A stretch of DNA of 63,775 nucleotides, the filler included, from Collodictyon triciliatum (lineage: Eukaryota): NCBI GenBank assembly GCA_043381765.1. It is 17 parts of 17 records of this genome, joined end to end, with 100 filler letters (N's around TTAATTAATTAA, not from the genome) between each part and the next. Parts side by side here need not be neighbours in the genome. Positions count along the whole stretch, not along the records: positions 42,761 to 46,544 come from JBHJMP010006889.1; 16 more parts are not named here. One strand, 5' to 3'. Shown piece after piece: positions 42,859 through 43,108 of the stretch. A model generated the notes under the pieces. The model made no database searches and was not told the origin of the DNA. It worked only from the letters and a program-made list of their open reading frames with translations. Position 1 is the first letter of the stretch; every line of letters starts with the position of its first letter. Made by a program: the position numbers and the translations under genes.

Positions 42859-43077
42859 ATGGATTCTCAAACACTCGATGCAAACATAGCCGCTCTAAAA
42901 TACTTTGGTGTCCCCGCTAAGGACGTCTTTGAAGCCCTCATGCGTTCCGCTCGCCGCAAAGAAAGTTTACAAAAACATTATATCAAAAGAAAAACAGAAG
43001 AGAAAGAAAAATACAAATGGAGAAACCCCGAGATCACTGTATACATCGATAAACAAGGAAATAAATCTTATAAATAA
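42859..43077 (+). CDS. Small basic orphan protein of the viral element (72 aa)
   Basis: ATG start, convergent with the polymerase-helicase gene, shares the terminal hairpin, CTTAAAG motif upstream. Confidence 0.6.
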   Translation: MDSQTLDANIAALKYFGVPAKDVFEALMRSARRKESLQKHYIKRKTEEKEKYKWRNPEITVYIDKQGNKSYK

Positions 43078-43108
43078 AATTTTACTTTTTCAGTAAAATT
43101 TTATTTAT
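43070..43108. terminator. Perfect AT-rich hairpin (17-bp stem, 5-nt loop) between convergent stop codons
   Basis: ATAAATAAAATTTTACT-TTTTC-AGTAAAATTTTATTTAT; the arms contain the TAA stops of both genes. Confidence 0.75.

Follow-up and report, generated by a model that had tools for sequence, protein, structure and literature searches.

The DNA analyzed here, a window of 63,775 bases from the Collodictyon triciliatum assembly GCA_043381765.1, contains at positions 42761-46544 a contig of 3784 bp (JBHJMP010006889.1, contig W in what follows). To judge by its gene content and by the linkers that flank it, contig W is a fragment of a small double-stranded DNA virus of the virophage/polinton-like kind, and it is the sole part of the window belonging to this element. 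It carries, at 43070-43108, an A/T-rich hairpin with a 17-bp stem and a 5-nucleotide (nt) loop, placed where two convergent open reading frames (ORFs) end: an ORF of 72 amino acids (aa) on the + strand (42859-43077) and, on the - strand (43105-45366), a 753-aa replication protein that combines a family-A-like polymerase domain with a DUF5906/VapE-type (D5-like, superfamily 3) helicase, the helicase gene for short. Further upstream on the - strand lie a 66-aa ORF (45651-45851) and an A32-type (FtsK-HerA) packaging ATPase (45877-46544), cut at its 5' end.

The hairpin between two convergent reading frames

The left arm of the hairpin (ATAAATAAAATTTTACT, 43070-43086) and its right arm (AGTAAAATTTTATTTAT, 43092-43108) are perfect reverse complements around the loop TTTTC (43087-43091); of the 17 perfect pairs, 16 are A-T and one is G-C. 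The stop codon of the + strand ORF (TAA, 43075-43077) lies within the left arm and that of the helicase gene (TAA, complement of 43105-43107) within the right arm, and the gap of 27 nt between the two stops is made up entirely of inner stem and loop. The stop codon of each transcript thus falls in the 5' arm of its own hairpin, and an AATAAA hexamer is found in the 5' arm of the transcript of either strand.

We compared this structure with 1000 dinucleotide-preserving shuffles of the 3784-bp contig, taking perfect stems with loops of 3 to 8 nt. The longest stem per shuffle was 9 bp or less in 949 cases, 10 bp in 38, 11 bp in 11, 12 bp in one and 13 bp in one, none of the 1000 reaching 14 bp, against the 17 bp observed; among local shuffles of 240 nt (n = 5000) the longest perfect stem was 12 bp. 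In the entire 63.8-kb window, the hairpin at 43070-43108 is the only perfect stem of more than 10 bp. Folded as RNA over 51 nt, it reaches -15.0 kcal/mol in the helicase sense (z score -9.15) and -13.1 kcal/mol on the + strand (z score -9.40), with 0 of 200 shuffles as stable in both cases. The initial annotation had described a 17-bp, almost pure AT stem with a 5-nt loop and a stop codon in each arm, and the sequence and the shuffles confirm this description. It had also spoken of two convergent viral genes, which holds for the replication gene, while its 72-aa partner is an orphan of uncertain coding status: no family was found for it in Pfam or PHROG, and only one marginal match (E value 8.7e-4) appeared among 1.84 billion representative proteins.

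The hairpin in related elements

All 11 homologues of the helicase (50-72% identity) come from metagenomes, and the contigs of these relatives reach 17 kb. The DNA of relatives used here corresponds to three of 81 metagenome contig candidates, namely L001 (6179 bp, 68% helicase identity), L002 (2791 bp, 65%) and L003 (4807 bp, 56%). L001 shows the order ATPase, small ORF and helicase, followed by a convergent ORF of 99 aa, an ORF of 187 aa and a convergent integrase with an rve core (E value 8.9e-11); contig W itself has no integrase. In the IMG/VR collection none of 157 candidate stretches held a close helicase relative, and of the 36 loci that a search of prokaryote genome bins by DNA pattern picked up, none resembled any of the four contig W proteins by tblastn. 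Ten IMG/VR loci have ATPases at 24-28% identity, located on polinton-like or virophage-like elements that carry D5-type primase-helicases and lipase. Two of the loci under study, L004 and L005, are one IMG/VR contig of 32,208 bp whose analyzed part is a giant perfect palindrome, with mismatch-free arms of 4270 bp and a 4-nt centre; it may be either a head-to-head dimer or an assembly artefact.

The helicase stop codon (GAA TAA) is where the hairpins of L001, L002 and L003 start, as in contig W. L001 and L002 share a single version, with 10+5 pairs around a 1x1 mismatch and a loop of 4 nt, folding at -13.3 kcal/mol in the helicase sense (z score -3.3) and at -6.3 in the antisense; the version in L003 has 12 pairs and a loop of 5 nt, with -14.9 kcal/mol in the sense (z score -4.2) and -13.9 in the antisense. 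Within an 85-nt gene-end window the P value against shuffles was 0 for W, 0.006 for L001 and 0.01 for L003. Beyond the letters forced by the conserved C-terminus and the stop codon the arms are unrelated between lineages, and their complementarity is kept; the hairpin is therefore conserved by position and not by sequence, with 17, 15 and 12 pairs in W, L001/L002 and L003, respectively. The view that a hairpin at this gene end is a selected feature is upheld by its recurrence at the same stop codon of three relatives with changed stem letters, and we conclude that this is a real structure, under selection and linked to the 3' end of the replication gene.

The stems of the relatives contain four G-U wobbles, three in L001 and one in L003, all four of which pair in the helicase-sense RNA, whereas A mispairs with C at the same four positions in DNA and in the antisense RNA. 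Since the wobbles pair in the helicase-sense RNA alone, they point to RNA rather than to a DNA cruciform, and this strand bias is suggestive of selection on the helicase mRNA, as opposed to selection on a cruciform or on both transcripts equally.

The convergent, tail-to-tail layout appears again in L001, where about 25-27 nt separate the stops and the 99-aa ORF ends inside the hairpin. This ORF is kept in L002 (66 of 88 residues identical, the differences by codon position being 17/8/21) and its C-terminus is recognisable in L003, and the 72-aa ORF that takes the same place in contig W bears no similarity to it; thus, the hairpin goes with the helicase gene, whatever lies past it. The identity between W and L001 is a mosaic, 90% for the ATPase, 53% for the 66-aa ORF and 68% for the helicase, with non-homologous ORFs past the hairpin, a pattern that suggests module exchange with one breakpoint at the hairpin.

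Four DNA runs searched at 80% likeness gave no new hairpin version; one of them, X2, has the hairpin of the L001 type, at very high depth. In run X1 a contig whose depths sum to about 32 aligns over 43064-43108 alone; it carries three 1-nt insertions, its flanks are unlike, and it represents either a comparable hairpin from a different context or a chance match of A/T-rich sequence.

A probable signal for RNA 3'-end formation

We consider it probable that the hairpin is a signal for RNA 3'-end formation of the replication-gene mRNA, and in contig W it probably serves the transcript from the opposite side as well. Once transcription had passed the stop codon, the RNA would fold into an A/U-rich stem of 12-17 bp; because the stop codon is located in the 5' arm, each transcript would keep its own stop, and the stem would be the site at which the RNA is terminated or cleaved, most likely with poly(A) addition. 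The signal would most likely be read by a giant helper virus, through a double-strand-specific nuclease and a poly(A) polymerase, in the manner known from Mimiviridae and their virophages. This reading by giant-virus machinery is the most likely mechanism, unproven, and we put it forward tentatively and with more doubt than belief, by analogy with those systems; helper dependence would be plausible given what type of element this is and what type of signal it carries.

According to Priet et al. 2015 (PMC4402537), Mimiviridae polyadenylate their transcripts at palindromes that are unconserved in sequence, the RNase III-like protein R343 nicking the hairpin and the poly(A) polymerase R341 extending it; the same source credits the 'hairpin rule' to Byrne et al. 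2009. Pithovirus and, in part, Marseilleviridae are described as using similar hairpins (PMC4402537; PMC5413956), and for Noumeavirus 151 of 226 palindromes are reported in the 10% of the genome between ORFs, with one poly(A) site mapped inside a hairpin (PMC5413956). Helper-type terminator hairpins have also been reported for virophages and transpovirons (PMC6723459; PMC7031253). The background of Mimivirus and the Sputnik virophage, on which the idea of a hairpin rule at this locus was first built, is borne out in the published literature.

As in Mimiviridae, the palindrome is A/T-rich, stands at a gene end and keeps its place but not its letters among orthologues, the genome being so rich in A and T that AATAAA has little value as a signal. 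Unlike the Mimiviridae case, it is robust at one junction per fragment and not at most genes, and it overlaps the stop codons; moreover, neither a helper virus nor an RNase III or poly(A) polymerase gene is in view here, and W, L001 and L003 lack the Mimivirus promoter motif. The likeness to virophages lies in a small double-stranded DNA element of parasite type, with an A32-type ATPase, a replication protein nearest to that of Zamilon and a gene-end hairpin, whereas the lineage is uncultured and distant in sequence from the known virophages, and neither hairpins at most gene ends nor late-promoter motifs were found on its fragments. Hairpins at some but not all gene ends recall the partial rule of Marseilleviridae, as does a statistical excess between genes; these, however, are large viruses with their own RNase III, and here we deal with a piece that falls short of 4 kb, with relatives of up to 6 kb, and has no such gene.

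Evidence weighed

Several observations count against a 3'-end signal of this kind, to begin with those made at other gene ends. Among the 15 gene-end windows of W, L001 and L003, four had hairpins at P <= 0.01, four were marginal, and seven had none or a P value of 0.4. The four clear cases are the ends of the W 72-aa ORF, the W helicase, the L001 helicase and the L003 helicase, that is, one junction per sequence; the marginal ones are the W ATPase (P 0.038), the W 66-aa ORF (0.068), the L001 small ORF (0.032) and the L001 integrase (0.074). The enrichment at other gene ends that had been anticipated is nearly absent, the helicase junction alone being clearly non-random on fragments of 3.8-6.2 kb, and no hairpin rule is apparent in the DNA of W, L001 and L003. 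The second convergent pair of L001, formed by the 187-aa ORF and the integrase, has no hairpin. As a separate observation, the stops of these two genes overlap by four bases (CTAG, L001 4781-4784) within the palindrome GACTAGTC.

A wider count was made on seven non-redundant sequences (W, L001, L003, L010, L013, L006 and the first half of L004), L002 being dropped for its likeness to L001, L005 for being the L004 contig, and L007-L009, L011 and L012 for belonging to the L010 lineage with the same hairpins. Stems of 10 bp or more, perfect or with a single mismatch, were counted by type of gap, using naive ORF calls, and compared with dinucleotide shuffles. The 41 tandem gaps held 18 stems against 2.4 expected, the 12 convergent gaps four against 0.65, and the 10 divergent gaps two against 0.97. 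This excess is the pattern that gene-end signals would be expected to leave in these sequences; it comes mostly from L010 and L004, and A/T-rich simple sequence inflates palindromes. With a relaxed criterion allowing G-U pairs, gene ends (31 of 68) and upstream windows (25 of 69) were not separated, the two being largely the same DNA in tandem arrays, and a ranking of sliding windows by energy mostly picked coding stretches richer in G+C.

The remaining points on the unfavourable side concern the sample, the transcripts and the presumed helper. The independent hairpin versions are three in number, and RNAalifold returned no pairs for them, as MAFFT cannot align stems of unequal length; the covariation case rests on the separate folds alone. 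None of the eight runs listed for the stretch is an RNA run. The early promoter motif AAAATTGA has no occurrence in W, L001 or L003, and TCTA, common throughout these three sequences, is not enriched upstream of their genes (7 of 14 windows, against 3 of 14 downstream); a TCTA-type late promoter motif has been reported for Mavirus. Giant-virus marker genes are absent among the ORFs of at least 120 aa in the window, which bears on the helper part of the interpretation. Finally, AATAAA is present in both arms, and the nuclear poly(A) machinery of the host could act on it without any stem.

This last point leads to a different explanation, in which host RNA polymerase II transcribes the element in the nucleus, AAUAAA signals are used back to back, and the palindrome arises from two head-on copies of the signal in a 27-nt gap, the stem being idle. 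AATAAA indeed stands in the 5' arm on both strands of W and at the helicase stop of L001 and L003; in the close lineage 6 of 14 windows at gene ends contain it and none of the 14 upstream windows does, and the rve integrase of L001 makes nuclear integration plausible. The arrangement is also like that of back-to-back poly(A) signals in compact eukaryotic genomes, with close convergent genes, signals at the stops and a palindrome. Nevertheless, the AATAAA pair covers 6 bp and not 17 pairs, nor the stems of 15 and 12 pairs in the relatives, whose inner parts have no AATAAA: the stem goes far beyond the hexamer copies, and its inner letters differ between relatives without loss of pairing. The hairpin itself accounts for four of the six ends with AATAAA, the hexamer is about as frequent upstream of genes (20 of 69) as at their ends (25 of 68) when the seven sequences are taken together, and wobbles preserved on one strand would not be expected if pairing were irrelevant. 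Since AATAAA cannot account for stems of 12-17 pairs, we regard an origin from these signals as unlikely. A role at the level of DNA, whether as a cruciform, as a seam for recombination where gene cassettes are swapped at the edge of the replication module, or as a replication or packaging signal, would agree with the break of synteny located exactly at the hairpin (the 72-aa orphan in W against the 99-aa ORF in L001, L002 and L003) and with the mosaic of identities between W and L001; in addition, terminal palindromes of endogenous virophages and polinton-like viruses are proposed in a preprint to prime replication (bioRxiv 10.64898/2026.07.28.741278). The hairpin of L001 is, however, internal (3820-3850 of 6179 bp) and not terminal, and the wobbles of L001 and L003 make a DNA cruciform weaker while leaving the helicase-sense RNA unaffected. 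The hairpin could act as a seam alongside its primary role in RNA, without replacing it, and as the main explanation the DNA-level element appears quite improbable.

The insertion of a short, mobile palindrome at a TAA stop, tolerated there as a neutral passenger, could be read from the X1 contig, with its match to 43064-43108 and its unlike flanks, yet that match is short, A/T-rich and taken at 80% likeness, so that it may be due to chance. No direct target duplications are seen at the edges of the hairpin, there is no second copy in the window, exact matches to the inner stem number 0 in 2.9 million IMG/VR contigs, and the relatives display a different hairpin at the same codon instead of an empty site, all of which leaves such an insertion very improbable. 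The position between convergent genes and the ability to fold on both strands would also suit a factor-independent two-way terminator of bacterial type, made of a stem and a U run; but the stem has one G-C in 17 pairs, no U tract follows it on the + strand, a terminator scan placed four sites in contig W and none at the hairpin, and the genes are of a eukaryotic virus type, which makes a bacterial-type terminator hardly credible. An RNA 3'-end signal is the reading we favour.

Other genes and features of contig W

The initial annotation had found the ATPase polinton-like by eye and had inferred a virophage-like lifestyle, and a virophage/polinton-like nature of the element is supported by the Pox_A32-type ATPase, a family-A-like palm, matches to Zamilon and Qinghai Lake virophages, clusters labelled Preplasmiviricota and the rve integrase of L001. 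Genes for a double jelly-roll major capsid protein, a penton protein or a maturation protease are seen neither on the 3.8-kb contig W nor on the L001-L003 fragments. In the 753-aa protein, residues 422-581 match Pfam DUF5906 (E value 2.1e-12) and a VapE-like family (E value 1.8e-6), and the protein matches the PHROG DNA primase. Its predicted model, built with ten homologues, is confident only at residues 1-278 and about 620-730, with a mean predicted local distance difference test score (pLDDT) of 59 and about 88 for the N-terminal, polymerase-like domain, which spans about residues 1-278. The best named match in BFVD is the 'DNA replication protein' of Zamilon virus (E value 7.3e-17; 303 columns, root-mean-square deviation 3.7, 23% identity), and further matches are a Pyramimonas orientalis virus protein, the 'helicase/primase/polymerase' of Qinghai Lake virophage (E value 1.6e-14) and a Catovirus protein. 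In the PDB the model matches family A DNA polymerases (E value about 1e-4), and the nearest ESM Atlas clusters are those labelled Preplasmiviricota. Because of the BFVD, PDB and Pfam matches, we class it as a predicted replication protein that joins a polymerase to a helicase, as those of Sputnik-type virophages do; such an N-terminal domain is called TVpol, a name that none of the searches returned.

The ATPase passes the curated cut-off of Pfam Pox_A32 (E value 5.8e-9 to 6.4e-9) with about 19 residues lost at the contig end, and a protein search with it returned 14 proteins, none of them informatively named. The 66-aa ORF has no family in Pfam or PHROG and is conserved in L001, where tblastn finds 53% identity across 60 residues at 1070-1240. 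At the junction of these two genes lies an imperfect hairpin of 13 pairs on the - strand (45838-45873), with one G-U pair, one mismatch and a loop of 8 nt (P 0.038 against shuffles); it begins 7 nt past the ATPase stop, its loop includes the codon at which the 66-aa ORF starts, and no counterpart was recovered in L001 by the criterion applied.

About 35-40 nt upstream of the helicase start, at 45400-45408 on the - strand, the block TTAAAGACA is a candidate lineage-specific promoter. The corresponding pattern TTAAA[AG]ACA, with AAAAT before it, occurs 20-45 nt upstream of the helicase start in W, in L001 (about 1497-1505) and in L003 (about 2367-2375), and four of its five occurrences in these sequences lie 80 nt or less upstream of an ORF; it would be a promoter element unlike the published Mimiviridae motifs. 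Further upstream, the gap between the helicase and the 66-aa ORF (45428-45646) contains seven repeats of the GGGTGTACA type, which face either way and flank a centre rich in A/T, out of 12 matches in the window with at most one mismatch, including a perfect inverted pair of 10 bp at 45428-45454. The corresponding place is occupied by TGCTCAACCCC-type repeats in L003 and by GGGTAGGGTA-type repeats in L001. The cluster is a candidate replication origin or protein-binding array, and its repeats look like lineage-specific origin iterons that may co-vary with the replication protein. An Rfam match to MIR1023 in this region scored 26 bits against a gathering score of 90 and was taken as chance.

Surroundings in the window

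The window is not a single locus: it is divided by N runs into 19 stretches, mostly of about 3.78 kb, joined by linkers of the form N44-TTAATTAATTAA-N44 (for example 42661-42760 and 46545-46644), and it looks like size-sorted contigs from a fragmented assembly. The G+C content of the pieces spans 0.30 to 0.61. As the pieces are separate contigs, genes that are neighbours across a linker are unrelated in position. The neighbouring contigs carry genes of eukaryote type, among them a 671-aa leucine-rich repeat (LRR) protein, an O-fucosyltransferase, RING, Coq4 and RhoGEF proteins and a Tc1-type helix-turn-helix protein, and the LRR gene (40410-42425) sits on a different contig from the hairpin. 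Two of the ORFs are long and intron-free, the 671-aa LRR_8 protein at 40410-42425 and a 369-aa protein of the O-FucT family at 48228-49337; hairpins are absent at their ends. Both termini of contig W fall within viral sequence, and for this reason a free and an integrated state of the element cannot be told apart.

Significance for virophage- and polinton-like viruses

The hairpin joins a known kind, the gene-end hairpins of giant viruses and their parasites. In the literature such hairpins are described for Sputnik, transpovirons and several giant-virus families, and none was found for polinton-like or metagenomic virophage-like elements, a provisional result as few subscription papers were covered; for these elements terminal hairpins alone are discussed. 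The novelty is accordingly modest and consists of the lineage, the strand bias and a hint that hairpins are widespread in polinton-like elements. A broader proposal, that gene-end RNA hairpins are general in uncultured polinton- and virophage-like viruses, beyond the Sputnik-type virophages, acting as part of a 'compatibility code' with the giant virus whose nuclease and poly(A) polymerase would read them and as seams for gene swaps, such as that of the 72-aa ORF for the 99-aa one here, seems to us rather unlikely; if it were true, the geometry of the stem could aid in matching uncultured elements with clades of helper viruses.

According to a preprint (bioRxiv 10.64898/2026.07.28.741278), the need for a giant virus and the identity of the transcribing machinery are unsettled for the majority of polinton-like viruses and metagenomic virophages. 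The helper cues described so far in the sources at hand are promoter motifs common to the helper (PMC6723459; 10.1101/2022.07.28.501842), such as the early motif AAAATTGA of the polinton-like virophage PgVV (preprint 10.1101/2022.07.28.501842). A conserved, strand-biased hairpin at a gene end in an uncultured freshwater lineage would offer a second helper cue, one that can be read from sequence and mapped in metatranscriptomes.

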